A DNA stretch of 64,000 nt from Gemmatimonadota bacterium (GCA_020344375.1 CP070823.1:976617-1040616); one strand, 5' to 3'; counted from the stretch's first letter, positions 8,159 through 62,150 are shown. Numbers and translations: made by a program. The notes: a model not told the origin generated them from the sequence alone.

Positions 8159-8202
8159 TAGCTCGATAGACTAGCCCAGTCACCCTAGGCGAAGGCAGAG
8201 TC

Positions 8203-8820: not shown

Positions 8821-8834
8821 GCGCGGAGGTTCAG

Positions 8835-31081: not shown

Positions 31082-31437
31082 GGATCCGCTGATCGGGCAG
31101 CGACGAACGTCACCAGGGTATCCGCGGCCTCCCAGCGGCCCAGACGCTGTCGTGCGACGAGGAGGATCTGCTTCGGGCTCACTCCACTCACCTCCCACTG
31201 CACGTGAAGATCTCCTTGCACGACCGCACCTGATCCCAGCCGATCGGGCCCTGAGGCCAAGAGTCGCTCCATCTCGGCCTGCGCCCGCACACTCACCTTT
31301 GTCCGCAGGTGTGAGATCTTCGTATTGGAAGAGACCACACTCACCGCGGCGCTCAGCCCGAGAACGCTGACCGCCAGCACCACGAGTGCCACCATCACCT
31401 CGACCAGGGTGAATCCGGACCCCAGCCCCTTGCTCAT
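31078..31437 (-). CDS. PilV/GspI-like minor pilin
   Basis: [23 protein letters not shown] class III signal peptide; 119 aa. Confidence 0.75.
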
Positions 31438-34906: not shown

Positions 34907-35284
34907 TTAGCCGGCGCAGGCAACCACACCTTCGGTCGTCGCCGTCGACATTCCGGAGACCTCACCGTAGTAGATCTCACAGTCGGTGTCGGTACCCGTG
35001 TGAACGGCGCTCGCCCTCCAGCCGGTCCCGCTGGCCGTCCCGACAGTCACCGTCACGCCCTGGCTCTGGTTGAAGTCGAGGTTGGCCGTCGTGGTCGCGT
35101 ACGTCAGGTAGTCGGCGAAGTACGCCTCCTCCGCCGCCGCGAGGTTGCGCAGGTCGGACTTCATGGCCGACACGTACGCCTTCTCCTTGGTGTTGGCGAA
35201 CTTCGGAATCGCGATCGCGGCCAGAATGCCGATGATCACGACCACGATCAGAAGCTCGATCAACGTGAAGCCCTTCCGGTTCAT
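34907..35284 (-). CDS. pilA: Type IVa major pilin PilA
   Basis: MNRKG/FTLIELLIVVVIIGILAAIAIPKF, 125 aa, with a C-terminal Cys...Cys loop. Strong SD AAGGAGG. Confidence 0.95.
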   Translation of the reverse strand: MNRKGFTLIELLIVVVIIGILAAIAIPKFANTKEKAYVSAMKSDLRNLAAAEEAYFADYLTYATTTANLDFNQSQGVTVTVGTASGTGWRASAVHTGTDTDCEIYYGEVSGMSTATTEGVVACAG

Positions 35285-37370: not shown

Positions 37371-37381
37371 CGCCTCACCGC

Positions 37382-41118: not shown

Positions 41119-41255
41119 TGCCTATTCTCACTGGACCCCTATCTTGTGGATTCCGTCCCCGCCGCTCATCCGCTCTGCCGAAACCTCACGGTGCCAACGC
41201 AGTGCGCGAACAGGTGCCTCACGAGAGCTTGCCTCACGATCGAGCGGAGGTTCCC

Positions 41256-46821: not shown

Positions 46822-47817
46822 ATGACCAAGCTGATCATCCAGATTCCTTGTTACAACGAGGAAAAGACGCTGCCGGTGGCCCTCGCGGCCCTGCCGCGGG
46901 ACGTGTCGGGTGCGGATCGAGTGGAATGGCTCGTCATCGATGACGGGAGCGGCGACGCCACGGCCGAGGTCGCCAGGCAGGCGGGGGTTGATCACGTCGT
47001 GCGCCTGCCACGCCACCAAGGGCTGGCACGGGCGTTCGTGGCGGGTCTGGAGGCGTCGCTGCGGGCGGGCGCCGATATCATCGTGAACACCGACGCCGAC
47101 AACCAGTACTGCGCGGACGACATCCCCAAGCTGATCGAGCCCATCCTGCGCGGCGAGGCCGAGATCGTGGTGGGCGCGCGGCCCATCAATGAGATCAAGC
47201 ATTTCTCGCCGATCAAGAAGTTGCTGCAGCGGGCCGGGAGCGGGGTCACGCGGCTGATTAGCCAGGCCGATGTACAGGATGCGCCGAGCGGCTTCCGCGC
47301 GTTCAGCCGCGAGGCCGCCATGAAGCTGCACGTATTCAACGAGTACACGTACACGATCGAGACCGTCATCCAGGCCGGGCAGAAGGGGATGGCCATCACA
47401 TCCGTCCCGATCCGGATCAACGAAGACCTGCGTCCCTCCCGGCTGGTGAAGAACTTGCCCAGCTACCTGTACCGGCAGCTGCTGACCATGATGCGGATCT
47501 TCGTCACGTACAAGCCCTTCAGGTTCTTTGCCACCGCCGGTGTACTCGTGTTTCTCGCCGGCCTGTTGATCAGCGTTCGCTTCCTGTACTTCTACTTCAC
47601 CGGCAACGGAGCCGGGCACGTTCAGTCTCTCATCCTGTCAGCCCTGCTGATGGGCGCGGGGTTCTTCCTGGCTGTGATTGGCCTCGTCGTAGACCTGATC
47701 TCGGTCAACCGTCAGCTCCTCGAGATCCTGGACTGGCGCATGCAGAAGATCGAGGAGCGCATGAGCGATCAGAGCACGGTGATGACGGAATCGAGGTCGC
47801 GCGATGAGGCACAATGA
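46822..47817 (+). CDS. GT2-family polyprenyl-phosphate glycosyltransferase (GtrB/ArnC/DPM1-like)
   Basis: ATG at 46822 gives MTKLIIQIPCYNEE..., with DDGSGD and TDADNQ (DxD) motifs plus two C-terminal TM helices. This is the architecture of lipid-phosphate sugar synthases. Confidence 0.8.
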   Translation: MTKLIIQIPCYNEEKTLPVALAALPRDVSGADRVEWLVIDDGSGDATAEVARQAGVDHVVRLPRHQGLARAFVAGLEASLRAGADIIVNTDADNQYCADDIPKLIEPILRGEAEIVVGARPINEIKHFSPIKKLLQRAGSGVTRLISQADVQDAPSGFRAFSREAAMKLHVFNEYTYTIETVIQAGQKGMAITSVPIRINEDLRPSRLVKNLPSYLYRQLLTMMRIFVTYKPFRFFATAGVLVFLAGLLISVRFLYFYFTGNGAGHVQSLILSALLMGAGFFLAVIGLVVDLISVNRQLLEILDWRMQKIEERMSDQSTVMTESRSRDEAQ

Positions 47818-49099
47818 ACCGGCCTTCGACACGACAGGCCGGTCGCGGTCAGGCAGCGCTTCCGACCCTACGGCTCCGGCCATGAGCCCCACGCAGAACG
47901 TAGCGCGAGAGCCCGGCCGGCTGGCCGCCGTCCAGGGAAGGCTCCTCGCTGTGGCCGAGAGCAGCGACTACGAGGGGTACTCGAAGCACGATGCGCTGAA
48001 CTCTCCCTGGCTGGCAGCCGCGGCAGGCGAATCCAAGTGGTTGCGGCTCGCGATCACTCAGGCGGTCATGCGTTCTCCGCTGCACGTCCGGCCGCTGCTC
48101 GGCGTGCGCACGGCACGCAACGCCAAGGGGATTTCGCTTTTCGCGCGGGCCCTGCTGGCGCGGTATCGAGTCTATGGCCAGCAGGGCAGCGCCGAGGCTG
48201 CGCGGCGCCTCCTGGCCTGGCTCGCCGATCCTCCCGCCTCAGAATTCCCCTGGCCGGCGTGGGGGTATCCGTATCCGTGGCAGGACGTGGGCTTCTTCGC
48301 GCCCCGCGATTTCCCGAACCGCGTGGTCACCTCCTTCGTGGTTCAGGCCCTGCTGGACGGCTACGATGTGCTCGGCGAGAAGAAGCTCCTCGATGTCGCC
48401 CGTGAGATGGTGGACTTCCTGTTGCAGGCGCCCAGGACCCTCTACGAGGACGATCGGCACCGCTGCGTCAGCTACGTGCCAAGCGATACCGTCGACTGGA
48501 TCGTCCTGGACGTCCCAGCTCTGACCGGCGCGGTGGCGGCCCGACTCGCAGCGATTCGGCAGGACACGGAGCTCATGCGTGAAGCGGGCCGACTTCTACG
48601 CTACGTCGTCTCCAAGCAGACCGACTACGCCGCGTGGTACTACGCAGACCCGCCCTCTGCCAGTCACATCACGCACGACAACTACCACACAGGTTTCATC
48701 CTCGACGCCCTCCTCGAATACGGCCGCTGGGCCGAGAGCGACGAGTTCGAGGCTGCCTATCGCCGAGGGCTGCGGTTCTACCGGGAACGCCTATTCGAGT
48801 CCGACGGGGCGCCCCGCTTCATGCACGATCGAAAGTACCCGCTGGACATCCACGGGGCAGCCCAGGGGATCATCACGTTCGCCAAAGCGCAGCAGGCTCT
48901 AGGCGAGGGCTGCGACTTCTCGCGGCGCGTGCTGGGCTGGGCACTCCGAAACATGTACGATTCGCGCACAGGCTGGTTCTACTATCAGAGGCGACATTTC
49001 TTCCGTACCCCCATCCGTCTCCTGCGTTGGTGCCAGGCGTGGATGGCCTGGGCCATCGGCTGTCACGTCGAGTGCTGTGGGGAGTTGCCGTGCGAGTGA
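47804..49099 (+). CDS. Conserved hypothetical soluble protein (possibly alpha/alpha-toroid fold)
   Basis: 431-aa ORF translationally coupled on both sides. Helical, Trp/Tyr-rich blocks (WGYPYPWQ, DNYHTGFILDALLEY). The family is not recognised with confidence. Confidence 0.5.
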   Translation: MRHNEPAFDTTGRSRSGSASDPTAPAMSPTQNVAREPGRLAAVQGRLLAVAESSDYEGYSKHDALNSPWLAAAAGESKWLRLAITQAVMRSPLHVRPLLGVRTARNAKGISLFARALLARYRVYGQQGSAEAARRLLAWLADPPASEFPWPAWGYPYPWQDVGFFAPRDFPNRVVTSFVVQALLDGYDVLGEKKLLDVAREMVDFLLQAPRTLYEDDRHRCVSYVPSDTVDWIVLDVPALTGAVAARLAAIRQDTELMREAGRLLRYVVSKQTDYAAWYYADPPSASHITHDNYHTGFILDALLEYGRWAESDEFEAAYRRGLRFYRERLFESDGAPRFMHDRKYPLDIHGAAQGIITFAKAQQALGEGCDFSRRVLGWALRNMYDSRTGWFYYQRRHFFRTPIRLLRWCQAWMAWAIGCHVECCGELPCE

Positions 49100-50094
49100 A
49101 GCGCAGTCGAAGACGCTTGGTCTTCTGGCTGGGAACGGTTCTCGGGCTTCTGCTCATCCTAGTACTGCTGCTACGCTACGACCCGGCGGCTGTACTTCCT
49201 CCCATCCTTCAGAGCAAGATCCACCTGTTGGTGGCCGTGGCCGTCATCCAAGCCGCCATCCAGGTACTCAATGCCATGACCCCCGTCGTGCTGCTCGGCC
49301 CGCCGGAGCATGGGCATCTGTCTCGCTTGACTCAAACAAAGATCTTCCTGGCCCTCCAACCGCTCGCCCAGTTCGCTCCCGGTCGTCTGACCGACTTCGC
49401 CGCCGTTCCGCTCCTCATGAGGCACCATCGGACCGGTGCGCTGGCCAGCTCCATCGTGCTTGACCGACTGATTACCCTCTTCCTGCTGCTGCTCCTGACA
49501 CCCGTCGCCGTACGCTTCGTCTGGCCCTCAGCCTCGCCAACCGCAATGAACTTCGCCGTGATCGCCGGCCTGCTGGTCGTCGGCTCCACACCGTTTCTCC
49601 TGGCCAACCGCAAGTTTCGTGAGCTGGTCAATCGCTCGCTCCTGCGCTTCGCGCCGCGTCTCTTGGAGGGCTTCGGCAAACACACGGAGTCTTTGTTGCA
49701 CACATCGCGGGCGCGTCTGCTGGTCAACTTCTCCCTCACGGCACTGAAGATCCTGTTGGCGGGAATCTCGATAAGTCTTCTGGCTGCCAATGTCGGCCTG
49801 TCCCTGAACGTCTTCACGGCGACCTGTATGTCGGTCCTCATTCAGCTGGTGACCGCCGTGCCGCTGGCCCCTCAAGGTCTCGGCGTAGCTGAGGGATCGC
49901 TCGTCCTACTGTTCACGGTGAACGGGCTACCAGGAGCACTGGCGTTATCTATGGGTCTGATCGCGCGGATCCTTTTCATCCCAGTGATCGCGGTCATATA
50001 TATGACGACAACGGTCCCGCTCATCGCCGAGCGAATCGGCCACGAGCGTGAGGACTCTGACGACGTGAGTCATCGATCCGAAGACAGCTACTAG
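49096..50094 (+). CDS. Polytopic membrane protein, flippase-like (LPG_synthase_TM/UPF0104-like)
   Basis: GTG at 49096 overlaps the preceding stop (GTGA). About 8 TM segments after the basic N-terminus KRSRRRLVFWLG. This type is commonly found beside GtrB-like GT2 genes. Confidence 0.5.
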   Translation: MKRSRRRLVFWLGTVLGLLLILVLLLRYDPAAVLPPILQSKIHLLVAVAVIQAAIQVLNAMTPVVLLGPPEHGHLSRLTQTKIFLALQPLAQFAPGRLTDFAAVPLLMRHHRTGALASSIVLDRLITLFLLLLLTPVAVRFVWPSASPTAMNFAVIAGLLVVGSTPFLLANRKFRELVNRSLLRFAPRLLEGFGKHTESLLHTSRARLLVNFSLTALKILLAGISISLLAANVGLSLNVFTATCMSVLIQLVTAVPLAPQGLGVAEGSLVLLFTVNGLPGALALSMGLIARILFIPVIAVIYMTTTVPLIAERIGHEREDSDDVSHRSEDSY

Positions 50095-50106
50095 GCGGGG
50101 GCTGGA

Positions 50107-51327
50107 TTGAGACTCTGCATCTTGGGTAACGCGCAGAACTCCCACGTGATACGCTGGGCAGAGTTCTTCAGCTCGCGTGGCCACGAGGTCACCATCGTCT
50201 CCGCCAGACCGCACGAGCTGCCGGGCATCCAGGTCTATGCGCCCAAGCTGCCGTTCGAGGACTTCCTGAGGCGCCGTGAGATCTACGACCAGAACCGCGC
50301 GCCGAACTTCGCTGTCTACCTCAGCTACATTCTGCTCGCACTGACGGTTCGCAGGACCGTGCGGCGACTTTCGCCCGACATCGTCATGGCGATGACGTTG
50401 GAGACGAACGGCATACTCGCCATGATCGCGGGTCATCACCCTACCGCGCTGTACCATCTCGGCAACAAGGCGCTGTCCGTGATGAGCGAGACCTCTCTGG
50501 TCATGCGCTTGCTTGTCAAGGCGATGCTGCGGTTCTCGGACATGCTGCACACGGGCGATAGTGCAGGCGCGGCTCGGCTGAGACAGCTCGGCGCGCCTGC
50601 GGACAAGATCTTCATCAACCCATGGGGCGTGGACCTCAAACAGCTTCACGCAGAAGCTGGGGTAGCTGAGGTGCAAGAGCACCTAGGTGCTTCGGGCAAG
50701 AAGCTCTTCGCCTGTATACGGGCATTCATGCCCGAGTATGATATCGCTACCTTCCTACGTGCCATTCCTGACATCGTATACGCATACCCAGATACCGCAT
50801 ACGCGGTTATCGGAGACGGTCCGGAACGCGACAAGCTAACGAAGCTGGCGGAGGAGCTGGATATCCGCGACTATGTGACGTTCGTCGGCTACGTGCCCTA
50901 CGACACGTTGCCCGCCTACACACTGGCCGCTGACTTCTACGTCGATCCCATCAACTTTCGCTTGCCTGTCGGGAGGACGTGGTGGGGGCACCGAATGCGC
51001 TGCAGCATGGATGGAATCGGCTACTCCATAACACTTATGTTAGGCCTCGCTAGCGGCTGCATACCTTTGGTCACACGCCGCGCAGGACTATCAGATATCT
51101 TCTCCGAGGAACAACAACGCCTTCTCTTGTGGGAGCCTGGCAATCCGACCGACCTTGCCCAGAAAGCGAAGGGCCTCCTCGCCTCTCACGTAGATTGTCA
51201 AGCACTTCGGGCAAGCCTGACCCAGATGGCCGAAGAGCGATTTGACTGGCAACTCAACGCCGATCGAATTGAACGGGAGTACCTTGATAAGATACGGGAG
51301 CACGCAGGCAGCGTCTTAGAGCCATGA
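50107..51327 (+). CDS. GT-B fold glycosyltransferase (GT4/GT1-like)
   Basis: 406 aa with a TTG start. MRLCILGNAQNSHVIRWAEFF N-terminus and a C-terminal Rossmann half with IGDGPERDKL...FVGYVPYD. Confidence 0.7.
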   Translation: MRLCILGNAQNSHVIRWAEFFSSRGHEVTIVSARPHELPGIQVYAPKLPFEDFLRRREIYDQNRAPNFAVYLSYILLALTVRRTVRRLSPDIVMAMTLETNGILAMIAGHHPTALYHLGNKALSVMSETSLVMRLLVKAMLRFSDMLHTGDSAGAARLRQLGAPADKIFINPWGVDLKQLHAEAGVAEVQEHLGASGKKLFACIRAFMPEYDIATFLRAIPDIVYAYPDTAYAVIGDGPERDKLTKLAEELDIRDYVTFVGYVPYDTLPAYTLAADFYVDPINFRLPVGRTWWGHRMRCSMDGIGYSITLMLGLASGCIPLVTRRAGLSDIFSEEQQRLLLWEPGNPTDLAQKAKGLLASHVDCQALRASLTQMAEERFDWQLNADRIEREYLDKIREHAGSVLEP

Positions 51328-52004
51328 AGCATCCGGAAAGCGTTGTCCCAACGCCTTGGGACGCCAAGATCTTCGGCATGGACACGTACGAGATACTCTC
51401 CCTCGATGAGGCGACTTTGCAAAGCATCTCATCGCTGCATGGCCACTTCACGATCAAAGTGGACCCTCTGCTCTCTACTGAACTGCTGCACCGCTACGAC
51501 TTCTATTACTGTGACACGCAGATAGATCCGTTCTGTCTAGAAGAAGACTTCGTCGCATACAACAGCGACAGCGTTTCGGTTCTCCATGACATCGACATCG
51601 AAGAGCTGGTGAAGCTATCACAAGGAGCCTACTCTCACGGCCGGTTCCATCGCGACTTCAACATACGCAATGAGCTTGCCGACCTCAGATACGACTCGTG
51701 GTTGGGGCAATTGCATCAAACCGGTCGGGTTATCGGGCTTGCCTACAAGAACGCTCTGGCTGCGTACTTTGCATGCGAGAATAGCAAGGTCCTTCTTCAC
51801 GCCATTGACCGAAAGCTACAAGGCAAAGGTTTGGCTAAGTACCTCTGGACAGCTGGATACAGAGAGCTTTTCAACGCAGGACACCGGGAAGTCTCTTCGT
51901 GTATCTCGGTCGCGAACATGCCAGTCCTGAATCTCTATCGGGCGCTGGGGTTCAAGTTCAGGAATCCGGTGGACGTGTACCACAAGTTCAATCCGCCGAA
52001 GTAG
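51324..52004 (+). CDS. GNAT N-acetyltransferase, WecD-like (dTDP-4-amino-4,6-dideoxyhexose N-acetyltransferase)
   Basis: 226 aa with the same two-part layout as E. coli WecD (N-terminal PWDAKIFG, then GRFHRD). GNAT motif A is QGKGLAKYL. Immediately precedes the wecE-like gene. Confidence 0.65.
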   Translation: MKHPESVVPTPWDAKIFGMDTYEILSLDEATLQSISSLHGHFTIKVDPLLSTELLHRYDFYYCDTQIDPFCLEEDFVAYNSDSVSVLHDIDIEELVKLSQGAYSHGRFHRDFNIRNELADLRYDSWLGQLHQTGRVIGLAYKNALAAYFACENSKVLLHAIDRKLQGKGLAKYLWTAGYRELFNAGHREVSSCISVANMPVLNLYRALGFKFRNPVDVYHKFNPPK

Positions 52005-52038
52005 GCACGATCCTTTCGGACCCTGAGGTTGATCGGCC

Positions 52039-53172
52039 ATGAGCATCAGATTCAACGTGCCATATCTCACCGGGCGCGAACTGGAATATCTCCAGCGCGT
52101 GATCGACAACCGGACGTTCGCCGGCAACGGACCGTTCACGGCCGAGGTCTCAAGGAAGCTCGAAGAGCGTTATGACGTGCCGCGTGTGCTGCTGACTCAC
52201 GGTTGCACCGCCGCACTCGAAATGGCGGCTCTCTTGCTCGATCTCGGCCCCAACGACGAAGTCATCGTACCCTCCTACACCTTTCCAAGCACGGCGGCCG
52301 CCTTCGTGCGAGTGGGGGCGAAGGTCGTCTTCTGCGAGATCGATCCCGCGACGATGATGATCGATCCCGCCGACGCTGCCCGTCGGGTCACCTTGGCTAC
52401 GCGGGCCATCGTCCCGGTCCACTACGGAGGCATAGCCTGCGACATGGACGCCATCATGTCGCTGGCGAAGAAGCACGAGCTGACGGTGGTCGAGGACGCC
52501 GCCCAGGGCCTCGAAGCCAGCCTGAACGGCAGATGGCTGGGCACGATCGCACCGCTCGGCTGCCTATCCTTCCACGAGACGAAGAACCTGCACGCCGGAC
52601 TCGCCGGAGCGCTCTTCCTCAATGACCTCTCCTACGCCGAACGCGCGGAGGCCATCTGGGAGCGCGGCACGGACCGCCAGAAGGTGCTCAGGGGTCTGAT
52701 CGATAAGTACACCTGGGTCGAGGTCGGCTCGAGCTTCTACCCCTCGGAATTGCAGGCTGCTTTCCTCGCCGCGCAGCTGGAGTCGATCCAGACGAATCTT
52801 GCTGAGCGTCGAGCGCTCTACGACGCTTATCAGCAAGGCCTGGCCCCGTTGGCAAACGCTGGCCATTTGCGCTTACCGCGTGTCGACCCGGGCCGACAGC
52901 TCAACTACCACGCGTGCTATGTGATCTTCAACAGCGCCGCCGATTGCGATGCCGTGCGCGAGCACCTGAAGTCGAAGGACATCTGGGCGTACATTGGATA
53001 CGTTCCGCTCCACTCATCGCCTGTGGGGCGGCGACTGGGTTACCAGCCCGACGATCTCCCGATAACCGAGGAACACGCGCCGCGCGTACTGCGACTGCCG
53101 CTGCACAACGAGCTCAGCACGGCCGACGTGCGACGCGTCTGCGACGCAGTCAGGGAGTACTTCGAGGGGTGA
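52039..53172 (+). CDS. dTDP-4-keto-6-deoxyhexose aminotransferase, WecE-like (DegT/DnrJ/EryC1 family)
   Basis: Colinear with E. coli WecE as I recall it: NVPYLTGRELEYL, TAALEMAALLLDL, VPSYTF, VPVHYGG, SFHETKN (PLP Lys), DKYTWVEVGSS, VLRLPLH. Confidence 0.85.
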   Translation: MSIRFNVPYLTGRELEYLQRVIDNRTFAGNGPFTAEVSRKLEERYDVPRVLLTHGCTAALEMAALLLDLGPNDEVIVPSYTFPSTAAAFVRVGAKVVFCEIDPATMMIDPADAARRVTLATRAIVPVHYGGIACDMDAIMSLAKKHELTVVEDAAQGLEASLNGRWLGTIAPLGCLSFHETKNLHAGLAGALFLNDLSYAERAEAIWERGTDRQKVLRGLIDKYTWVEVGSSFYPSELQAAFLAAQLESIQTNLAERRALYDAYQQGLAPLANAGHLRLPRVDPGRQLNYHACYVIFNSAADCDAVREHLKSKDIWAYIGYVPLHSSPVGRRLGYQPDDLPITEEHAPRVLRLPLHNELSTADVRRVCDAVREYFEG

Positions 53173-53174
53173 CC

Positions 53175-53969
53175 ATGAGCGGAGCCGGGCCAACTTCCCA
53201 GGAATATCGCGACGGACTGGCCGCCTACTGCGCCGCCGTCCGCGACACAGCAGCAGGCCGAGACACCGACGAGCTGCGTCTGGAGATCCAGTTCGAGTGT
53301 CTGCGCGACTGGTCTCAGCTGCACAGCCTCGAGGAAGTGAAAGCCTGGTTTCTGGAACAGCGCAGACTGTGCAAGATGACGCTGGAGGACATACCGCTCG
53401 CGGAATGCCGGGGATGGTACTTCGACTCAGAGAGTGGCTGGCTTCGGCATGAGAGCGGCGAGTTCTTCTTCGTCCAGGGTCTGCGCGTACGACAGACAGA
53501 GACACGAGAGATCGGCGAGAAGGGCTGGGACCAGCCGATTCTCACACAGGTCGGCTATGATGGTGGAATACTCGGGATCCTGCGCAAGCGATTCGACGGT
53601 GTACCTCACTACCTCATCGAGGCGAAAGCGGAACCGGGCAACTACGAGCGGGTTCAGCTGAGCCCTACCGTCCAAGCGACCTTCAGCAACCTCAGGCGCG
53701 CGCATGGCGGTCGCAAGCCGATTTTCGCGGAGTTTTTCGAGCAACCGGAGGCGAACGGCGCGACTGTGCTCTACCGGCAGTGGCTGTCCGAGGATGGGGG
53801 CAGGTTACACCGCAAACGCAATCTCGGCATGCTGGTCGAGGTGCCTGAGGAGATCCAGGTCGATCTGCCTGCGACCTTCATCTGGTTGAGCCTGTGGCAG
53901 ATCAAGGCGTGCCTCGGCGAGAACGCGTGGGTTAATCCACACGTTCGAGGAATCATCGCTCACTTGTGA
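53175..53969 (+). CDS. NDP-hexose 2,3-dehydratase-like protein, single-domain (half-size)
   Basis: 264 aa from ATG 53175. Carries GWLRHESGEFFFVQGLRV...WDQPIL...GILGIL...HYLIEAKAEPGN...QLSPTVQATFSN, the signature I associate with the EvaA/TylX3-type Hexose_dehydrat domain. Only one copy is present. Confidence 0.65.
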   Translation: MSGAGPTSQEYRDGLAAYCAAVRDTAAGRDTDELRLEIQFECLRDWSQLHSLEEVKAWFLEQRRLCKMTLEDIPLAECRGWYFDSESGWLRHESGEFFFVQGLRVRQTETREIGEKGWDQPILTQVGYDGGILGILRKRFDGVPHYLIEAKAEPGNYERVQLSPTVQATFSNLRRAHGGRKPIFAEFFEQPEANGATVLYRQWLSEDGGRLHRKRNLGMLVEVPEEIQVDLPATFIWLSLWQIKACLGENAWVNPHVRGIIAHL

Positions 53970-53970
53970 G

Positions 53971-54975
53971 ATGAATCCGCTGGCACAACACGAGAAGCTC
54001 GCGCCCGGCGTCGGGGTCTGGGGCGTGGGGAACCACGCGCAGCGTAGCACGCTGCCGGCGCTGTCCGAATGCCCGGCCGTACGGCTGGTCGGTCTGACCA
54101 CACGAAGCGAGAAGGTGCGCGAGGAGCAGGCGCGAAAGTGGAACTGCAAGGCCTGGAAGACTCCGCGGGACATGCTTCAGGACCCGGAGGTCGAAGTCGT
54201 GTACCTCGCCACTCCCGTAGGCCTGCATCACGAGCACGGGCTACTCGCGTTACAGGCCGGTCGGCACCTGTGGTGTGAGAAATCGCTGACCGCCTCGCTC
54301 GACACGTCTCAGGAACTGGTCGAGGTTTCCACGGAGCTGGACGTCGCTCTCTGCGAGGCTTTCATGTACCAGCATCACCCACAGTTCCGGCAGGTTCTTC
54401 AATGGATCGTGGACGGGCAGATTGGCCAGATCCGCAGCATCAGTAGCCGCTTCGGGTTCCCCCACCTGGGGCCGGACGACATACGTTACGTTCGCGAGCT
54501 GGGCGGCGGCGCCCTGCTGGATGTCGGCTGCTATCCCCTCTCGGCGGCGCTCGCGATCGCCGGCGAGGAGCCGGACGGCGTTCATGCCGTGCTCGGCCGG
54601 GATGAAGGCTACGCGGTGGACACCGCTGGCTCGGCGCTGTTGCGATTCCCGTCCGGGATCAGCGCCCTCCTGGAATGGGGCTTCGGCCGTGCCTATCGAA
54701 ACGAATTGGAGGTTTGGGGAGAGGACGGAACGATCATCGCCGAGCGTGCGTTTTCGAAACCGCCCGACCTCAGTCCCAGAACCGTCTTGAGGCGGCAAGA
54801 TGGCACTGTTGTAGATAGCGATATACCGCCAGCCAACCAATTCGTGCACATGTTCGCGACATTCGCCGGCGTTCTGGAGGCTGACGCGGCCCGCGAAGAA
54901 CATCGGAGGCGCGCACTGCGACAGGCACGTACGGTTGCGGCTGTTCTCGAGTCTGCACATTTGACTGGTATCTAG
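53971..54975 (+). CDS. Gfo/Idh/MocA-family NAD(P)-dependent oxidoreductase (candidate NDP-hexose 3-ketoreductase)
   Basis: 334 aa with an N-terminal Rossmann motif [13 protein letters not shown] and CEKSL. The start follows the dehydratase-like gene's stop after a single intervening base. Confidence 0.7.
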
Positions 54976-55025
54976 CCCACAACGGGCTTGATACATTCGA
55001 TGCCAACTGCGATCTTAGGGTGCGT

Positions 55026-55922
55026 ATGCGGAAGGGAATTATCTTGGCGGGCGGAGCGGGCAGCAGGCTGTTCCCACTGACCATCGTCACCAGCAAGCAA
55101 CTCCTCCCGGTCTACGACAAGCCGATGGTCTACTACCCCCTGTCGGCGCTCATGCTGGCGGGGATTCGGGAGATCTTGGTCATAGCGACACCGGAGGCGC
55201 TTCCCTCCTATCAGCAGCTTCTCGCTGACGGCTCGCACCTGGGACTCACGATCTCGTACGCCGAACAGGCGCGGCCTGAGGGCCTCGCCCACGCGTTCAT
55301 CATCGGTCGAGAGTTCGTCGGTCGAGACCACGTCGCGCTCGTTCTCGGGGACAACGTCTTCTACGGCGGCGGTCTGATGGAGCCGCTCAGAAACGCCTCG
55401 GCGGACTTCAGGCCGGGAGCCACGATCTTCGCGTACTACGTCTCGGACCCGGAACGCTACGGGGTGGTGGAGTTCGACAACGCCGGCCAGCCAGTCGGTA
55501 TCGAGGAGAAGCCCCAGAAACCCAAGTCGCACTTCGCCGTCACCGGCCTCTACTTCTACGACAACCGGGTGCTCGATATCGCCGCCGGCTTGAAGCCGTC
55601 GCCACGTGGCGAGCTCGAGATCACGGATGTCAACCTCATTTATCTCAAAGAGGGAACCCTGCGTGTCACGTTCCTCAGCCGCGGCATAGCCTGGCTCGAC
55701 ACGGGAACGCCGGACGCTCTGCTGCAGGCCGCCAACTTCGTCGCCGCGCTCGAGCAGCGCCAGGGACTCAAGATCGGCGCGGTGGAAGAGGTCGCCTATC
55801 GCATGGGTTATATCGACGCCGCACAGGTTGAGCGCTTGGCGGATTCGCTGAAAGGAACCGATTACGCGAAGTACCTGCTGGGAATCCTACACGATCGCCG
55901 CCCCTTCGAGCCTGTGCGCTAG
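55026..55922 (+). CDS. rmlA: Glucose-1-phosphate thymidylyltransferase RmlA
   Basis: [19 protein letters not shown]...[18 protein letters not shown], canonical. Confidence 0.93.
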
Positions 55923-55995
55923 CCGGTCCAGGCGTTCTTCGCAGCGCCTGCCAGGGCGTCGGGTTCGGCGAGCACGGAGCTTTCCAGGGTAGCCG

Positions 55996-57114
55996 ATGAC
56001 GGAAGCCGAGTCATTCACACCCTCGTGCCTGCTGGTCAGCGGTGGAGCCGGGTTTATCGGCTCCAACTTCATCCGCTGGGTACTCGAGGAACACCCCGAT
56101 CTGTCCGTGGTGAACCTCGACCTCCTGACCTACGCCGGAAACCTCGAGAGCCTGGAGGACGTCGACGTACGGCACGGCCCGGCGGGAGACGGAAGGTACT
56201 ACTTCGTCCACGGCGACATCCGCGACTTCGAGACCATCGCGCGCCTACTCCGTGGTGAAGCCAGTGAAACCGTCCCCCAGGCGCAAGAAGCCCGCACGCC
56301 CCCACCCATAGACGCCATCATCCACATGGCCGCCGAGTCGCACGTGGACCGCTCAATCATGGGGCCAGCGATCTTCGTGGACACGAACGTGAAAGGCACC
56401 TTGACCCTGCTCGAAGCGTGCACAGCAGAGCTGGACCGAAGACCGCGACCTTTCCGCTTCCTGCACGTCGGCACCGACGAAGTATACGGCAGCCTCGACC
56501 TGGACGATCCCGCTTTCACCGAGACGACACGGCTTGCCCCGAACAGCCCGTACTCGGCCAGCAAAGCGGGGGCCGACTTGCTGGTACGGGCCTACGTCGA
56601 AACGTTCGAGCTGCCGGCAATCACCACCCGTTGCTCGAATAACTACGGTCCCTACCAGTTCCCTGAGAAGCTGATCCCGCTCATGATCACACGCGCGCTC
56701 CGCGATGAACCACTGCCCCTCTATGGCGACGGGCTGAACGTTCGGGACTGGCTGCACGTGGAGGATCACGCGAAGGGTCTCTGGACGGTGCTCGCCCACG
56801 GCCGGGTCGGCGAGATCTACAACATCGGCGGCGAGTGTGAGCTCCAGAACATCGAAATCGTCAGGAGCATCCTACGATTGCTCGAGAAGCCCGAGTCGCT
56901 GATCCGCTATGTCGATGATCGCCGGGGACACGACCGACGCTACGCCATGGACATCACGAAGATGCGTAGCGAGTTGAGCTGGCAGCCCGCACATACGCTG
57001 GACAAGGGACTGGCGGAGACGGTCGAGTGGTATCTCTCGCATCAGACGTGGTGGGAGCGCGTCCTCAACGAGGCGTACCTCGCGACCCGCGCCCTCTACC
57101 TGACGGAGGGCTAG
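55996..57114 (+). CDS. rmlB: dTDP-glucose 4,6-dehydratase RmlB
   Basis: GGAGFIGSNF and YSASKAGADLLVRAY (YxxxK). About 25 aa are inserted after the HGDIRD block. Confidence 0.92.
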   Translation: MTEAESFTPSCLLVSGGAGFIGSNFIRWVLEEHPDLSVVNLDLLTYAGNLESLEDVDVRHGPAGDGRYYFVHGDIRDFETIARLLRGEASETVPQAQEARTPPPIDAIIHMAAESHVDRSIMGPAIFVDTNVKGTLTLLEACTAELDRRPRPFRFLHVGTDEVYGSLDLDDPAFTETTRLAPNSPYSASKAGADLLVRAYVETFELPAITTRCSNNYGPYQFPEKLIPLMITRALRDEPLPLYGDGLNVRDWLHVEDHAKGLWTVLAHGRVGEIYNIGGECELQNIEIVRSILRLLEKPESLIRYVDDRRGHDRRYAMDITKMRSELSWQPAHTLDKGLAETVEWYLSHQTWWERVLNEAYLATRALYLTEG

Positions 57115-57138
57115 TGTGCCCATCAGCGAGGTAGAGCG

Positions 57139-58176
57139 GTGAAGATCCTCATCGACATCCTTCACCCGGCTCATGTACACTTCTTCAAGAACTTCTACGC
57201 CGAGATGAAGGGGCGTGGCCACGATCTTCGTATCACTGCCCGTGCTAAGGAGTGCTCGATCGATCTGCTGGAACGCTACGGGCTTCCTTACCGCCTGATC
57301 TCGGAACAGCGGACGGGCACGCTCGGGCTCGCCACCGAGATGCTTCGAAGGACGTACCGTCTCACTCGTGTTATGCGAGAATTCCAGCCGGACGTGATGA
57401 CCGGCATCATGGGACCGAGCATCGCGCTCGCAGGTGCGCTGTACCGGGTCCCCGCGGTCATCTTCTACGACACCGAATTCGCCACTCAGACGAACTGGTT
57501 CGCTTACCCTCTGGCTCACAGCGTGTGCACCCCCGATTGCTACCAGGGGGTGGTCCGCGGCACGCATCGCACCTACGCTGGCTATCACGAACTGGCCTAC
57601 CTCCACCCCAAGCGCTTCAACCCGGATCCGGCAAAGCTGGCCTCGTTCGGGCTGAGCGAGGACGAGCCTTATTCCCTTGTCCGTTTCGTCTTCTTGCAGG
57701 CCGTTCATGACCGCAGCCAGCGTGGCCTCTCCCTGCAGCAGAAGCTGCAGATCGTTGATCTCCTCGAGCGGCACGGTCGTGTTCTGATATCCTCGGAGGG
57801 CCCAATACCCGACGAGCTCGCAGCTCGGCGCGTGCAGGGACCGGTCGAAGACATACACCATTTGCTCGCCTACGCCCAGGTGATCGTGGGAGAGTCAGCC
57901 ACGATGTCTTCGGAGGCGGCCGTACTCGGCGTACTGGCCATCGTCATCGCGACCACCGGCCGCGGCTATACCGATGACCAGGAAGCGCGGTACGGCCTGG
58001 TGCGGCACTTCACAGAGGACGAGTACGACGACGCCGCGCGCACCATCGAGCAGCTGTTTGCGGGTGAATCACCTCGCAGCTTCGGAGCCCAAGCTCGCCT
58101 GCGACTGCTCGACGAGAAGATCGACGTGACCGACTGGATGGTGCGCTACTTCGAGAGCCAGTTCGGAGGAACCTGA
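57139..58176 (+). CDS. DUF354-family protein (GT-B/epimerase-like fold, function unknown)
   Basis: 345 aa with a GTG start. The KILIDILHPAHVHFFKNF N-terminus is characteristic of DUF354. Confidence 0.6.
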   Translation: MKILIDILHPAHVHFFKNFYAEMKGRGHDLRITARAKECSIDLLERYGLPYRLISEQRTGTLGLATEMLRRTYRLTRVMREFQPDVMTGIMGPSIALAGALYRVPAVIFYDTEFATQTNWFAYPLAHSVCTPDCYQGVVRGTHRTYAGYHELAYLHPKRFNPDPAKLASFGLSEDEPYSLVRFVFLQAVHDRSQRGLSLQQKLQIVDLLERHGRVLISSEGPIPDELAARRVQGPVEDIHHLLAYAQVIVGESATMSSEAAVLGVLAIVIATTGRGYTDDQEARYGLVRHFTEDEYDDAARTIEQLFAGESPRSFGAQARLRLLDEKIDVTDWMVRYFESQFGGT

Positions 58177-58182
58177 CCTCCC

Positions 58183-60084
58183 GTGTGCGGGATCACGGGC
58201 ACCTTCAACTTCGGCGACGTGGGGCTGCTCCGCGCGATGACCCAGTCTATCGCGCACCGCGGTCCCGACGGCGAGTACCTGTATGGGGACGGGCCGGTGC
58301 ACCTCGGGAACCGACGCCTGGCGATCCTGGACCCGGAGCATGGGGCGCAGCCCATGTTCAACGAGTCCGGGTCGGTCGCGGTGATCTACAACGGCGAGAT
58401 CTACAACTATCCCGAACTGAGGCAGCACCTTCTCTCCAGCGGCCACACACTCAAGACACGTTGTGATACGGAGCTACTTCCTCACCTCTACGAAGAAGAG
58501 GGGATCGATTTCGTCCAGCGGCTCAATGGGATCTTCGCCTTTGCCTTGTGGGATCGCGACCTGAACAAGCTCTTCCTGGTGCGCGACCCGCTGGGAGTCA
58601 AACCGCTGGTCTTCGCGCAGGTTGGCGACAGACTCGCCTTCGGCTCGGAAGCGAAGGCTGTGCTGGCCAGCCGCCTGGTCGCCGCCGAACTGGACGAGGT
58701 CAGCCTGCACCTGACCATGAACCTGCGCTATATCCCCGGGGAACGAACGCTCTTTCGCGGTATCCGGCGGCTCCCGCCGGGCACTATTCTCGAGGTGGAC
58801 CGGGCCGGCCTGCGCAGCCGCGAGTACGGAACGATCGATTGGAGTCCCCGGACGCGCTCGCTTGGAGACTGGATCGAGGCGATCCGGGCGCATGTCGAGC
58901 AGGCAGTCCACCGCCAGCTCCTCTCAGACGTGCCCCTGGGCGTTTCACTATCCGGTGGCATCGACTCCAGCGGTCTGGTCGCGATGATCCGCAAACGCTA
59001 CTCCGGGCCGCTGAAGACCTTCACGCTCGGGTTCAACGAACCATGGGATGAGAACGAAGATGCCCGCTTCGTCGCCGAGCGATTCGGAACGGAGCACCAC
59101 GAGATCGTTCTGCACGAGCCGGCGATGGGCTACCTGAAAGAGGCGATCTACTTCACTGAAGAGCCCAAGGTAAACTGTCTTCAGCTGTTTCTCCTCCACC
59201 GGTTCGTCAGCGAGCACGTCAAGGTGGCTCTGTCGGGCCTCGGGGGAGACGAACTCTTTGGCGGCTACGACTTCTACACGTACCTCGGTCGTCTGCGCTG
59301 GCTGCGAGAGGTCCTGCCACGAGGGTTCTCGCGCCGCGTGCTGGGGCCAGCTCTCGACCGCTTGGCGCGGATGACGGCACGACTCGACCGACCCTCGCTG
59401 GACCTCTACGTGCGCGGGCTGGAGTGGGTCGGCTGCCTGCACGATGGGGCGCGCCACTACTTGCTTCTACGTAACGCCTGGGACTTCAATCCTGTCCTGC
59501 TTCAGCGAGTCTATACGCGAGATTTTCTCGACCGGCTCGAGGTTCGCTGCCGCGACGGCTTTGACGGCTTCTTCCCAGCCGAACGCGCCGTGGAAAGTGA
59601 GGCCTTACGCGCCGAATTCCGGACCAAGCTGGTCAACGACCTGCTGCATAACGAAGACACGATGTCGATGGCGCACTCCGTTGAATCGAGAGTGCCACTG
59701 CTGGATCTGGAGCTGGTCCGCTTCGCTGCCCATATCCCGGATGAGCTCCGCTTTCGAGGCGGATTGAAATGGCTGCTCAAGAGAGCGTTCAAGGGAATCG
59801 TCCCGGACGAGACGCTGGCGAAGAAGAAGTGGGGCTTCACGGTCGACCCGGTCGAGCAGTACAAGAAGGACCTGCGGGCTATGGCCGCAGAACTGCTGAC
59901 GCCCGACCGACTGCGCCGTACCGGGATCTTCAACCCACGTTTCGTGACCAGCCTTCTCAGCTCGCGCCCACATCCGCGTCTGCGCTGGCACTACTTCATG
60001 CTGTGGCAGATGATCGGGGTGGAACTCTGGCATGAGCTGTTTCTCGAGCATGATCCGGCTGGCGTCGATGGGACCGGGCCATGA
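58183..60084 (+). CDS. Asparagine synthase (glutamine-hydrolysing)-like amidotransferase
   Basis: (M)CGITG with an N-terminal nucleophile Cys2. Carries the SGGIDSS PP-loop; 633 aa. Confidence 0.85.
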   Translation: MCGITGTFNFGDVGLLRAMTQSIAHRGPDGEYLYGDGPVHLGNRRLAILDPEHGAQPMFNESGSVAVIYNGEIYNYPELRQHLLSSGHTLKTRCDTELLPHLYEEEGIDFVQRLNGIFAFALWDRDLNKLFLVRDPLGVKPLVFAQVGDRLAFGSEAKAVLASRLVAAELDEVSLHLTMNLRYIPGERTLFRGIRRLPPGTILEVDRAGLRSREYGTIDWSPRTRSLGDWIEAIRAHVEQAVHRQLLSDVPLGVSLSGGIDSSGLVAMIRKRYSGPLKTFTLGFNEPWDENEDARFVAERFGTEHHEIVLHEPAMGYLKEAIYFTEEPKVNCLQLFLLHRFVSEHVKVALSGLGGDELFGGYDFYTYLGRLRWLREVLPRGFSRRVLGPALDRLARMTARLDRPSLDLYVRGLEWVGCLHDGARHYLLLRNAWDFNPVLLQRVYTRDFLDRLEVRCRDGFDGFFPAERAVESEALRAEFRTKLVNDLLHNEDTMSMAHSVESRVPLLDLELVRFAAHIPDELRFRGGLKWLLKRAFKGIVPDETLAKKKWGFTVDPVEQYKKDLRAMAAELLTPDRLRRTGIFNPRFVTSLLSSRPHPRLRWHYFMLWQMIGVELWHELFLEHDPAGVDGTGP

Positions 60085-62150
60085 AAGAGTCCGCGGCCCG
60101 CCCGAGAAAGACGCTGAAATCCGCCAAGATCTCTCGACACAGACCAATCCTCGGCGGCCTGCTCGCGGCGCCGTCGCTTTGCGCCGTGGTCGCCGCCCAT
60201 CTCTACGTCTACCCCCGCGGCTTGGCCTACGCGGGCCCGCTCCTCATACTCGACCATCTGTTCGATCTGCTGGCCGTGACGGCCCTGATCGCCATAGCCA
60301 TCGCCGTCGGCAACTACGCACTGTCAAAGGTCGGCCTTGATCTTGTACACCCCATCGAGGCCCTTGCCTTCGGCGCCGCCGTTGGTGTTGGCCTCATCTC
60401 GACGTCCTTCCTCGTCCTCGGCTTCCTCTCCGGATTGCACGCACCGATCCTGGCGGCCGCCCTTGGCCTCTGGGCGTTGTTGGCTCGGCGGGAGCTCGGC
60501 GAGCTGCCGCGAATCCTGCGGCAGGCTCGCAGCGAGCTGATCGCAAGCGCTGGCGATCGGGCACTGCTCCTCATCGGTATCCTGGTCGTCGCAGCGGCGA
60601 CGGCCTTCATCCTGATCATGGCCCTTGCACCGCCTGTCGACTGGGACGCCCTCACGTACCACCTACAGGTACCGGCTCATTTTCTAGCGGAGGGCCGCAT
60701 CTATCTGCCGGACGACAACCTGCACACGGCCTACGTCGGGCTCGTCCACATGCTGTATCTGCCTTTGCTGGCGCTGGGCAGTACCTCGGGACCGGCACTC
60801 TTCAGCGCGGTCATGGCCCTACTGCTGGGCCTCACGGCCTTCTCGCTCGCAGCCCGCTTGCTCGACGGCCGAACCGCGAGCCTTGCCCTCGGCCTGGTGT
60901 GGGGAACGACGACCTTGCTGCTGGTAGCGATCACTCCGCGGATCGACGTCACGCTCGCTCTCTATCTTCTACTCGCCCATTACGCTCTGCTGCTCGCCGC
61001 ATCCTCTCCCTCTCAACGCGACTATTTCTACCTGGCAGCGCTTCTACTCGGATTCGCCTTTGCATCCAAGTACCACGCCGTCCCCTACATCGTGGGCCTG
61101 ACGCCCTTGATTCTCTGGCTTTCGGTATCTGGTTGGGAGCGGCGAGCCGCGTCCGCTCGCGCCCTGTCCCTCTTCAGTCTGATCCTCCTCTCAGCCGCGG
61201 TTCCCTGGCTGCTGAAGAACTGGGTTCTCCTCGGCGCGCCGCTCTATCCGCTCCTGGCCGACAACAGGTTAGAGCCGTGGCTCGTGACGTTCTACGGCAC
61301 CGCCACGCTCCCCTCCTCGGTCAGCCCCGAGATCTATCATCTGCTCGATGCCGCCCGATTGCCCTTTAACCTTCCAGCTGCTTTCTTCTCGCCCGGTCGG
61401 TTGACGATCGAATTCGAGGGGGCCTTTCACTACGCCAACCCTGTCCTGCTGCTGCTGCCGCTCTGGCTGTTCTTCCTGCGGAAGAGGACGATCAACTGGT
61501 TGATCATCCCCGCCATCGGGTACCTGCTCGTGCTGATCTTACCTTTCGGGACGACCAACCTCCGTTACCTGATCCCGGCGAGCGTGCCTCTGACGTTGGC
61601 CGCAGTGCACATGCTCGTGCGGACGAGCGAGCGCCATCTGTCAATCGCGATGGGCCGGCTCCTTCTCGTCGCGCTGGCGGCTATTGCCCTAGTGCCGTCG
61701 GCCCGGACCGCGTACGTGTGGCTCCGTCACACCGAGGCGCTCCCCTATCTGATCGGCGCGACCTCAGGCGAAGAGTACATGGCCACGCACCTTGATCCCG
61801 GCGTCCGTACTCTCGTCCCGGTCGTGAGGTTCGTGAATCAGCGCCTGCCCGAGGGCAGTCGCATCTTGATGCTCTATGAGGCCCGGGGCTTCTACTTCCG
61901 AAGGCCGGTGATCGAGGACACCTGGGTCACGAACTGGCCACTGCTCGCCCATCGTCTGCCTCGTGACCGGTGCCTGGAGCAGGCCGGCATCAGCCACTTG
62001 CTCGTGAACTACGGAGCCGTCAGCTACTACCTACGGCGCGGAGTTGATCCCCGGCTGTTCCAGTGGCAGGCTTTCACGGACTTCGCCGACAGGTGCCTGG
62101 GCGAGCCGGTCTTTCAGGACCCGGCCTTCCTCGTCTTCCAGAGCCGCTAG
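60081..62150 (+). CDS. Polytopic membrane protein, GT-C-like; paralog of 41256-43322
   Basis: 689 aa with an ATGA overlap to the AsnB-like gene. See 41256-43322 for the shared blocks. Confidence 0.6.
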   Translation: MKESAARPRKTLKSAKISRHRPILGGLLAAPSLCAVVAAHLYVYPRGLAYAGPLLILDHLFDLLAVTALIAIAIAVGNYALSKVGLDLVHPIEALAFGAAVGVGLISTSFLVLGFLSGLHAPILAAALGLWALLARRELGELPRILRQARSELIASAGDRALLLIGILVVAAATAFILIMALAPPVDWDALTYHLQVPAHFLAEGRIYLPDDNLHTAYVGLVHMLYLPLLALGSTSGPALFSAVMALLLGLTAFSLAARLLDGRTASLALGLVWGTTTLLLVAITPRIDVTLALYLLLAHYALLLAASSPSQRDYFYLAALLLGFAFASKYHAVPYIVGLTPLILWLSVSGWERRAASARALSLFSLILLSAAVPWLLKNWVLLGAPLYPLLADNRLEPWLVTFYGTATLPSSVSPEIYHLLDAARLPFNLPAAFFSPGRLTIEFEGAFHYANPVLLLLPLWLFFLRKRTINWLIIPAIGYLLVLILPFGTTNLRYLIPASVPLTLAAVHMLVRTSERHLSIAMGRLLLVALAAIALVPSARTAYVWLRHTEALPYLIGATSGEEYMATHLDPGVRTLVPVVRFVNQRLPEGSRILMLYEARGFYFRRPVIEDTWVTNWPLLAHRLPRDRCLEQAGISHLLVNYGAVSYYLRRGVDPRLFQWQAFTDFADRCLGEPVFQDPAFLVFQSR

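Follow-up and report, generated by a model that had tools for sequence, protein, structure and literature searches.

What kind of sugar does a bacterium make when the genes for a familiar surface amino sugar enclose a pair of enzymes related to those of antibiotic biosynthesis? The question is raised by a gene cluster of a Gemmatimonadota bacterium, which we analysed within a window (the whole stretch of DNA under study) of 64,000 nt, GCA_020344375.1 CP070823.1:976617-1040616. An initial annotation had singled out six genes on the + strand, at 51324-57114, and all six were confirmed there. They form the nucleotide-sugar core of an array of 13 overlapping or short-gapped + strand genes (46822-62150) that lies between pilSR and pilC. 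The six genes encode predicted enzymes of deoxythymidine diphosphate (dTDP) sugars (NDP, nucleoside diphosphate):

51324-52004, + strand: GNAT N-acyltransferase (Pfam Acetyltransf_1, E 3.6e-6)
52039-53172, + strand: WecE-type pyridoxal phosphate-dependent dTDP-4-keto sugar C4 aminotransferase (DegT_DnrJ_EryC1, E 7.6e-82)
53175-53969, + strand: short single-domain EvaA-like NDP-hexose 2,3-dehydratase, 264 aa (PF03559, E 4.4e-60)
53971-54975, + strand: KijD10-like Gfo/Idh/MocA (GFO) dTDP-3,4-diketo-2,6-dideoxyhexose 3-ketoreductase (PF01408 and PF22725)
55026-55922 (alternative start 55020), + strand: RmlA, glucose-1-phosphate thymidylyltransferase (TIGR01207)
55996-57114, + strand: RmlB, dTDP-glucose 4,6-dehydratase (TIGR01181)

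Our answer, held with moderate confidence, is that the cluster would make a product of the dTDP-4-acetamido-2,4,6-trideoxyhexose class. The annotation had offered such a product as a possibility, and three observations support it as a prediction: the catalytic residues are kept, the reductase is KijD10-like, and the gene order is conserved in 26 other genomes. The supply of substrate is as annotated, with a canonical RmlA (444 bits against TIGR01207, cut-off 360.65) and RmlB (458.4 bits against TIGR01181, cut-off 365.1), both at equivalog level. The genes are tightly packed: the dehydratase ATG lies two bases past the aminotransferase stop codon, and the junction with the reductase (TGA at 53967-53969, ATG at 53971) has the one-base gap that had been noted. 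The reported lack of rmlC and rmlD also stood. Hidden Markov models (HMMs) made from the neighbours of homologues found no RmlC-, RmlD-, FdtA- or C-methyltransferase-like open reading frame (ORF) in a six-frame translation of the window; the local RmlD model is narrow, so that this negative is moderate evidence and applies to the window only.

The distinguishing step would be removal of the 2-hydroxyl, and its candidate enzyme is the protein of ORF 53175-53969. The annotation had proposed the Hexose_dehydrat profile as the check on this ORF, and the match is strong (203 bits against PF03559, cut-off 25), covering the entire profile and keeping the catalytic glutamates. An alternative 351-aa reading from a GTG at 52914 overlaps the aminotransferase; homologues begin at the ATG of 53175, for a protein of 264 aa. 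This length holds one Hexose_dehydrat domain, whereas EvaA and TylX3 have two in about 470 aa, and the two-domain architecture of NDP-hexose 2,3-dehydratases is thus lacking in the window protein. Its best solved-structure match is EvaA (4j7g, 471 aa; E 3.4e-64), and it aligns better to the N-domain of EvaA (138.6 bits) than to the C-domain (79.6 bits).

EvaA is the only well-characterised NDP-hexose 2,3-dehydratase (review PMC8987622). Its pocket A is the active site, in which E139 and E190 are essential and their mutation abolishes activity; pocket B is an inactive remnant of gene duplication, and mutants in E352 and D353 keep activity (PMC8987622). The two essential glutamates align to E153 and E206 of the window dehydratase, and in an alignment of 21 short forms, 45 N-domains and 45 C-domains both are invariant throughout the short forms (21/21) and the N-domains (45/45). 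Ten further positions are invariant in N-domains and variable in C-domains (K151, N156, Q161, A168, T169, N172, H177, G179, K214 and R215), and the short clade, too, keeps all ten with little or no variation. The fold agrees: an AlphaFold model of the dehydratase (mean pLDDT 77) has EvaA as its best Foldseek match (E 1e-16), with generic Nudix hydrolases next.

A recent truncation or mis-assembly of a two-domain gene was considered as the source of the short form and rejected, given more than 2,600 homologues and short forms that are monophyletic and not nested in the N-domains. A word-indexed search returned 2,614 relatives of the dehydratase, of which the best 120 are 57-86% identical to it; their lengths are 253-281 aa, the exceptions being a 197-aa fragment and a 307-aa protein. 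When 1.84 billion cluster representatives were searched exhaustively, 1,475 members of the family came up at E <= 1e-3; the best 150 comprise about 17 short proteins, the remainder being two-domain. Neighbour joining put short forms, N-domains and C-domains into three monophyletic groups, the short forms being closer to N-domains (0.695) than to C-domains (0.787); the short form is no recent truncation because it forms a monophyletic clade of its own. The tree has no outgroup, and its midpoint rooting is no evidence on whether the short form predates the duplication. On these alignments and this tree, the short dehydratase is a distinct and strongly conserved single-domain clade, not the two-domain form of antibiotic pathways. 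The description of the cluster as carrying antibiotic-type 2-deoxygenation genes needs correcting for the dehydratase, which is single-domain and belongs to a separate clade. A heterodimer of two half-size dehydratases in the window was also rejected, since an HMM search of the six-frame translation found no second Hexose_dehydrat ORF there.

The reductase, annotated as a GFO oxidoreductase, resembles KijD10. Among solved structures KijD10 (3rbv) matches it best, at E 7.3e-46, and the family member after it reaches 3.5e-23, a lead of 23 orders of magnitude in E-value. In KijD10 the catalytic lysine of the EKP motif is Lys102 (PMC11167396). The window reductase keeps this motif lysine, its CEKSL aligning with AEKPL of KijD10. 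It also keeps the tyrosine of the G-x-Y-P motif (GCYPLSAA aligned with GVYPIRAA), which we take to be a conserved residue of KijD10-type reductases. The GFO partners of the short dehydratase in Pelagibacteraceae (SAR11) and Glaciecola again have KijD10 as their best match.

The enzymes of the 4-amino group were less uniformly as described. Full-length colinearity of the aminotransferase with E. coli WecE was borne out: residues 3-375 align to 4piw at E 3.3e-105, the HETK lysine motif included, and the next solved aminotransferase follows at 1.7e-41. The protein scores 491 bits against NF008687 (dTDP-4-amino-4,6-dideoxygalactose transaminase; cut-off 375) and, slightly under the cut-off of 434.85, 421.7 bits against TIGR02379. 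The GNAT had been called WecD-like. A GNAT domain is indeed present, and the likeness to WecD did not survive: the protein reaches 21.3 bits against the WecD model NF008212 (cut-off 219), and no WecD chain is among its PDB matches at E <= 1. It was therefore rejected as a WecD orthologue and carries a generic GNAT domain only. It is 18% identical to, and full-length colinear with, the GNATs of other short-dehydratase loci, with which it has an N-terminal PWD..FG motif in common.

The place of the GNAT in the pathway is suggested by the closest relatives of the window, three metagenomic contigs (L081-L083) that are syntenic from pilR to pilB and whose dehydratase is 86% identical. In these contigs a 305-aa N-formyltransferase (Formyl_trans_N/C; 7905-8822 in L081) takes the GNAT slot, and for this reason the GNAT is placed at the step of amine acylation. 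It is thus predicted to be the N-acetylase of a dTDP-4-amino sugar, encoded by a swappable cassette, and the closest relative would make the N-formyl version of the same sugar. Array and flanking genes are 75-97% identical between the window and L081; the GT4 glycosyltransferase and the GT-C-type transferase described below are lowest at 75%, and the others are at 82-97%. The GC content of the window is about 64% and falls to 0.57 across 50-52 kb, and this dip and the cassette swap together indicate that the region is recombinationally active.

Is this then a cluster for enterobacterial common antigen (ECA)? The ECA pathway of E. coli, which makes dTDP-4-acetamido-4,6-dideoxy-D-galactose (dTDP-Fuc4NAc), shares with the window RmlA, RmlB, a WecE-type aminotransferase and an N-acyltransferase of WecD-like overall size. 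Unlike the ECA pathway, the window has a dehydratase and a reductase between aminotransferase and RmlA, its GNAT fails the WecD model, and its closest relative uses a formyltransferase for the GNAT. Pfam and NCBIfam scans of cluster genes brought up no gene of wec assembly, and the nearest genome is a metagenome-assembled genome (MAG) of Gemmatimonadota. An ECA cluster was rejected on these grounds, and the "ECA-type" label of the annotation was dropped with it. The aminotransferase is instead a member of the deoxygenation module, its gene being fixed upstream of the dehydratase in 26 loci.

How general this module is was seen from a scan of one genome per species (GTDB), which gave 80 loci, 67 with the short form and 13 with the two-domain form. 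Short forms occur in Acidimicrobiia, SAR11, Actinomarina, Flavobacterium, Myxococcales and one spirochaete, in Alpha- and Gammaproteobacteria (Glaciecola, Brumicola, Pseudaeromonas, Ferrimonas, Sphingopyxis and Phenylobacterium) and in archaea (Poseidoniales and Woesearchaeota). A KijD10-like GFO gene lies directly downstream of the short dehydratase in 54 of the 67 loci and elsewhere in the locus in nine; the remaining four are at contig ends, so that the gene is present in 63 of 63 informative loci. RmlA accompanies the pair in 51/67 loci and RmlB in 45/67. A WecE-like aminotransferase stands directly upstream of the dehydratase in 26 loci from other genomes; in 26 genomes the genes for aminotransferase, dehydratase and reductase follow one another in this order, 1-2 bases apart. 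As in the window, a GNAT precedes the aminotransferase in three loci (L010-L012); a formyltransferase does so in L022, and the same family occurs elsewhere in L025 and L027. The nearest species-level genome is a Gemmatimonadota MAG (L036), whose proteins are 75-78% identical to those of the window for the dehydratase, RmlA, RmlB, the DUF354 protein and AsnB, 61% for the GFO reductase and 91% for PilC.

Other loci join the same pair to other genes. In the SAR11 set the pair comes after RmlB, RmlA, an epimerase like RmlC, a reductase like RmlD and a C-methyltransferase of the TylC3/KijD1 type. These enzyme types are, we presume, those of the pathway to mycarose, a branched 2,6-dideoxy sugar. The SAR11 set adjoins lepA, at about 3700-9700 in each locus (L050-L055, L057, L058, L062 and L063, from single-amplified genomes and MAGs). 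In another variant (L035, L037 and L042-L047) an FdtA-like cupin of the sugar 3,4-ketoisomerase family (PF05523) adjoins the short dehydratase, mostly upstream; the FdtA loci, from Alteromonadaceae, Flavobacterium, Sphingopyxis and Pseudaeromonas, have no WecE-like aminotransferase. That tailoring genes vary round a constant core fits a functional 2-deoxygenation cassette feeding different end products, and this pattern is our main argument that the short enzyme is likely to be active. The window is one instance of a common, widespread and little-studied module, of which the placement by pilus genes and the swap of the acylating enzyme are local peculiarities. The view taken in the annotation, that 2-deoxygenation is essentially a trait of secondary metabolism and its use at the cell surface unusual, needs correcting at the genomic level: loci of the surface-glycan type carry the pair in many phyla and also in archaea.

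The textbook place of hexose 2-deoxygenation is in the antibiotic pathways of actinomycetes, which offer the nearest comparison. There, two-domain dehydratases (EvaA, TylX3, Gra-orf27, KijB1 and SpnO) and a GFO reductase (KijD10) form the corresponding pair; further 3-ketoreductases of the GFO family are Gra-orf26, OleW and SpnN. The dehydratases belong to the same PF03559 family as that of the window and have the same catalytic glutamates, the window reductase is nearest KijD10, substrate is supplied by RmlA and RmlB, and the dehydratase and reductase genes are adjacent. Two things differ. First, the window dehydratase has one domain and groups with neither the N- nor the C-domains, in a clade of its own. 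Second, its context is a chromosomal surface-glycan and pilus locus of an uncultured sediment bacterium, with no polyketide or aglycone genes nearby. The window is chromosomal by its upstream genes (DnaK, HtrA, trigger factor, ClpX, TopA and PilQ), and a sequence-run search found near-identical copies of the region only in sediment, mangrove and estuary metagenomes and found no RNA runs that contain it.

Taken together, the six enzymes suggest a pathway of five steps. RmlA and RmlB would turn glucose-1-phosphate into dTDP-4-keto-6-deoxy-D-glucose. The short EvaA-like protein, probably a homo-oligomer (the form predicted is a homodimer that imitates the paired N- and C-domains of EvaA and has two equivalent active pockets), would then remove the 2-hydroxyl to give the unstable dTDP-3,4-diketo-2,6-dideoxyhexose, and the KijD10-like enzyme would reduce C3 with NAD(P)H to dTDP-4-keto-2,6-dideoxyhexose. 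C4 would next be aminated by the WecE-type aminotransferase, and finally the GNAT would N-acetylate the amine to yield dTDP-4-acetamido-2,4,6-trideoxyhexose. A precedent may be seen in the dTDP-D-forosamine pathway of Saccharopolyspora spinosa (cited in PMC8987622). Its order of chemistry is the same as that proposed for the window. SpnO, SpnN, SpnQ, SpnR and SpnS include in their work 2,3-dehydration, C3 ketoreduction and C4 transamination of a 2-deoxy-4-keto sugar, and forosamine is in addition 3-deoxygenated (by SpnQ) and N,N-dimethylated. Unlike that pathway, the window cluster has neither a 3-dehydrase nor an N-methyltransferase, and the amine would be acylated instead.

Several points weigh against this pathway. 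Pocket A of EvaA may need residues of the second domain, whereas the short form has one domain; the sole solved structure of the Hexose_dehydrat family is the two-domain EvaA, with none of a single-domain member; and the structure model of the window protein is of moderate quality, with low confidence in loops 98-116 and 171-178. A biochemical study of a single-domain member was not found in the open literature searched. The assignment of the GNAT is a weak one, made from position only, and sequence does not reveal the stereochemistry of the 3-hydroxyl and 4-acetamido groups or where the amination takes place.

Where would such a sugar go? The remaining genes of the array and those around the pilin gene bear on this:

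46822-47817, + strand: glycosyltransferase family 2 (GT2) protein of the polyprenyl-phosphate sugar synthase type, first gene of the array (Glycos_transf_2, E 1e-22; start refined against L081)
47804-49099, + strand: conserved soluble protein, 431 aa (no Pfam or NCBIfam match; 82% identical and syntenic in L081)
49090-50094, + strand: LPG_synthase_TM/flippase-like membrane protein (PF03706, E 4e-20; TIGR00374, E 2.4e-10; 8 transmembrane (TM)-like segments)
50107-51327, + strand: GT4 glycosyltransferase (Glycos_transf_1, Glyco_trans_4; 75% identical to L081)
57139-58176, + strand: DUF354 protein (Pfam DUF354, E 4.5e-12; syntenic in L036 and L081)
58183-60084, + strand: AsnB-type glutamine-dependent amidotransferase (Asn_synthase, E 2.5e-77; TIGR01536, 407 bits)
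60081-62150, + strand: GT-C-type (PMT_2) integral membrane glycosyltransferase (PMT_2, E 1.1e-9; 12 TM-like segments; 75% identical to L081)
43393-46501, - strand: pilS and pilR, two-component regulator pair, left flank of the cluster (6TM_PilS, HisKA, HATPase_c; Response_reg, Sigma54_activat, HTH_8; pilS start refined)
62281-63483, - strand: pilC, T2SSF platform protein, right flank (T2SSF, E 7e-69; 97% identical in L081)
34907-35284, - strand: pilA, type IVa major pilin and candidate glycan acceptor (N-terminus MNRKGFTLIELLIVVVIIGILAAIAIPKF)
35526-37370, - strand: GT-C-like, TPR-bearing, TMTC-like protein directly upstream of pilA (weak TMTC_DUF1736 match)
37382-39031 and 39028-41118, - strand: two GT-C-like polytopic membrane proteins between pilA and pilR
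41118-43322, + strand: GT-C-like polytopic membrane protein (PMT_2 match below the Pfam cut-off)

Periplasmic glycosylation by way of a lipid carrier is known from the Arn system (ArnB, ArnA, ArnC, ArnE/F, ArnT) and the Gtr system (GtrA, GtrB, Gtr*), and pilin is arabinosylated in a TfpW-dependent manner in Pseudomonas aeruginosa Pa5196. The array brings together genes for a GT2 of the polyprenyl-phosphate type, a flippase-like protein and a GT-C enzyme, and its logic therefore resembles that of the Arn and Gtr systems. The cluster also encodes a DegT aminotransferase and an N-acyltransferase (N-formyltransferase in the closest relative); ArnC is among the four best NCBIfam matches of the GT2 (with AglJ, PpgS and dolichyl-phosphate hexose transferase), all below cut-offs; and the GT2 has two C-terminal TM helices. 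Small flippases of the GtrA or EamA type are found in related loci: the GT2 family of the window recurs in 30 of them, with GtrA, an EamA-type small flippase or a weak PMT_2/GT-C-like protein. Unlike the known systems, the window would use dTDP as its nucleotide and a 2-deoxy-6-deoxyhexose as its sugar, its flippase candidate is of another type (LPG_synthase_TM), and its GT2 lies below cut-offs.

From this context, and less firmly than for the sugar itself, it may be proposed that the GT2 loads the sugar on polyprenyl phosphate, that the LPG_synthase_TM-type protein is the flippase that moves the lipid-linked sugar through the membrane, and that a GT-C enzyme then transfers it to an acceptor in the periplasm or at the surface, for which the type IV pilin is a candidate. 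The analogy suggests Arn/Gtr-like periplasmic glycosylation, possibly of pilin. The position of the cluster suggests the pilin as acceptor, with a probability that we put well below even. The pilA gene lies about 8 kb beyond pilR, and the pilus link is positional and lineage-specific: pilus genes are in no other short-form locus, and the linkage was rejected as a general property of the module for that reason. In L036 (about 6700-8000) AsnB runs straight to pilC without the PMT_2 GT-C gene that the window and L081 have, so that the candidate terminal transferase varies within the lineage. With GT4, DUF354 and AsnB genes in the array, the glycan may be larger than one sugar.

A rival destination deserves to be taken seriously, even if we stop well short of calling it probable: the sugar would be made as predicted and would enter an envelope polymer (a lipopolysaccharide O-chain, a capsule or an exopolysaccharide), its position beside pilus genes being a coincidence produced by an insertion hot-spot. 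Every other taxon has the module in ordinary polysaccharide-type loci without pilus genes, the same GT4, DUF354 and AsnB genes point to a glycan of greater complexity, and the GC dip and the cassette swap are those of a recombinationally active region. The gene content and the arrangement of the window speak against it. Among the cluster genes scanned (Pfam, NCBIfam), in no search aimed at these families, there was no match to Wzx, Wzy, an ABC exporter or a phosphoglycosyltransferase of the initiating kind; pilA has five GT-C-like proteins around it, one of them directly upstream; and the arrangement of pilSR, cluster, pilC and pilB is conserved in L081-L083, with pilB (T2SSE) following pilC in L081.

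The surroundings of pilA hold further features. Among the four GT-C-like proteins encoded between pilA and pilR (35526-43322) there are PMT_2 matches, and the group shows N-terminal DD motifs and 9-13 TM-like segments; of the five around pilA, pilSR and pilC one of 549 aa has no family match and an N-terminal NYDD motif. A second prepilin-like N-terminus was seen near 31416 on the - strand (31300-31420); this protein is probably a minor pilin downstream of pilA.

A more fundamental objection concerns the sugar. The cluster could make an ordinary dTDP-4-acetamido-4,6-dideoxyhexose of the Fuc4NAc or Qui4NAc type, with the dehydratase-like protein perhaps a Nudix-type hydrolase or editing enzyme of nucleotide sugars and the GFO protein perhaps a dehydrogenase on another sugar. 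RmlA, RmlB, a WecE-type aminotransferase and an acyltransferase do suffice for a 4-acylamino-4,6-dideoxyhexose, as the established ECA pathway shows, the single-domain form is without the second domain that all characterised 2,3-dehydratases have, and no assay of a short form was found. We nevertheless think this improbable, in view of four observations: the 26 genomes in which aminotransferase, dehydratase and reductase follow each other at 1-2-base gaps, with dehydratase and reductase together in 63 of 63 loci; a short clade in which neither the catalytic glutamates nor the N-domain signature vary; KijD10 as by far the closest solved relative of the reductase; and the joining of the dehydratase/reductase pair with mycarose-type tailoring genes in SAR11. 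That the product is instead a 3-amino-2,3,6-trideoxyhexose, the aminotransferase acting at C3 of the 3,4-diketo intermediate like EvaB, the GFO enzyme reducing C4 and the GNAT acetylating the 3-amine, would suit the classical role of such sugars as products downstream of EvaA, the imperfect predictability of DegT-family regiospecificity from sequence and a distant aminotransferase (25-27% identical to the window's, downstream of the GFO gene in four loci) that could be of another class, but it is improbable too for an aminotransferase that exceeds the cut-off for the C4-specific WecE and is some 60 orders of magnitude closer to WecE than to other solved sugar aminotransferases, next to a reductase that best matches the C3-specific KijD10, given also that the C4 ketoreductases of these pathways are, to our knowledge, of the short-chain dehydrogenase/reductase family and not GFO enzymes.

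The 4-acetamido-2,4,6-trideoxyhexose thus remains the preferred product, and it can be set, tentatively and with somewhat less than an even chance of being right in all its parts, in a wider picture. The short EvaA-like protein would be a functional homo-oligomeric 2,3-dehydratase, possibly of pre-duplication origin, and with the KijD10-like reductase it would open a widespread primary-metabolism route to acid-labile 2-deoxy sugars of the cell surface, in SAR11 and Poseidoniales among others; in the present bacterium these would perhaps be placed on type IV pili via polyprenyl phosphate and a GT-C enzyme. 2-Deoxyglycosides do not survive standard acid hydrolysis, and if the picture is true, surface 2-deoxy glycans could have been missed because of this lability. 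The open literature that could be searched has NDP-hexose 2,3-dehydratases almost only in Streptomyces-type or antibiotic clusters, two genome or microbiome surveys being the exceptions, and KijD10 in natural-product work only; a 4-acetamido-2,4,6-trideoxyhexose without a 2-amino group was not found there, and prior work is possible in subscription journals, which lay largely outside the search. If true, 2-deoxy sugars would be common on microbial surfaces, those of very abundant marine lineages included, which bears on phage recognition, glycan analytics and carbon cycling. An active short enzyme would moreover provide a minimal single-domain 2,3-dehydratase for work on structure and mechanism and would allow a direct test of the idea that pocket B of EvaA is a remnant. 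The organism of the window is uncultured, yet several carriers of the module are cultured strains, which makes the pathway testable. Such strains are Brumicola pallidula DSM 14239 (L022, with formyltransferase, aminotransferase, dehydratase and reductase), Glaciecola punicea ACAM 611 (L046), Pseudaeromonas paramecii JCM 32226 (L045), Ferrimonas aestuarii (L056) and Catenovulum sediminis.

Two further arrangements of the dehydratase family came up in the scan. In two Nitrospirota MAGs, L067 (7797-9412) and L068 (7920-9406), which are independent assemblies, an N-like and a C-like half of the dehydratase are separate, slightly overlapping ORFs in different frames (279 + 269 aa and 257 + 267 aa); this split pair may be an intermediate, with two genes, that links the single-domain form to the fused two-domain one. 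Beyond the actinomycetes, too, there are EvaA homologues with two domains, in Geobacter and other Proteobacteria (L070-L073, L076, L079 and L080), with the recurring order GT2, EvaA, GFO reductase, aminotransferase and methyltransferase, which suggests that these Geobacter-type loci lead to 2-deoxy amino sugars with N- or O-methylation.

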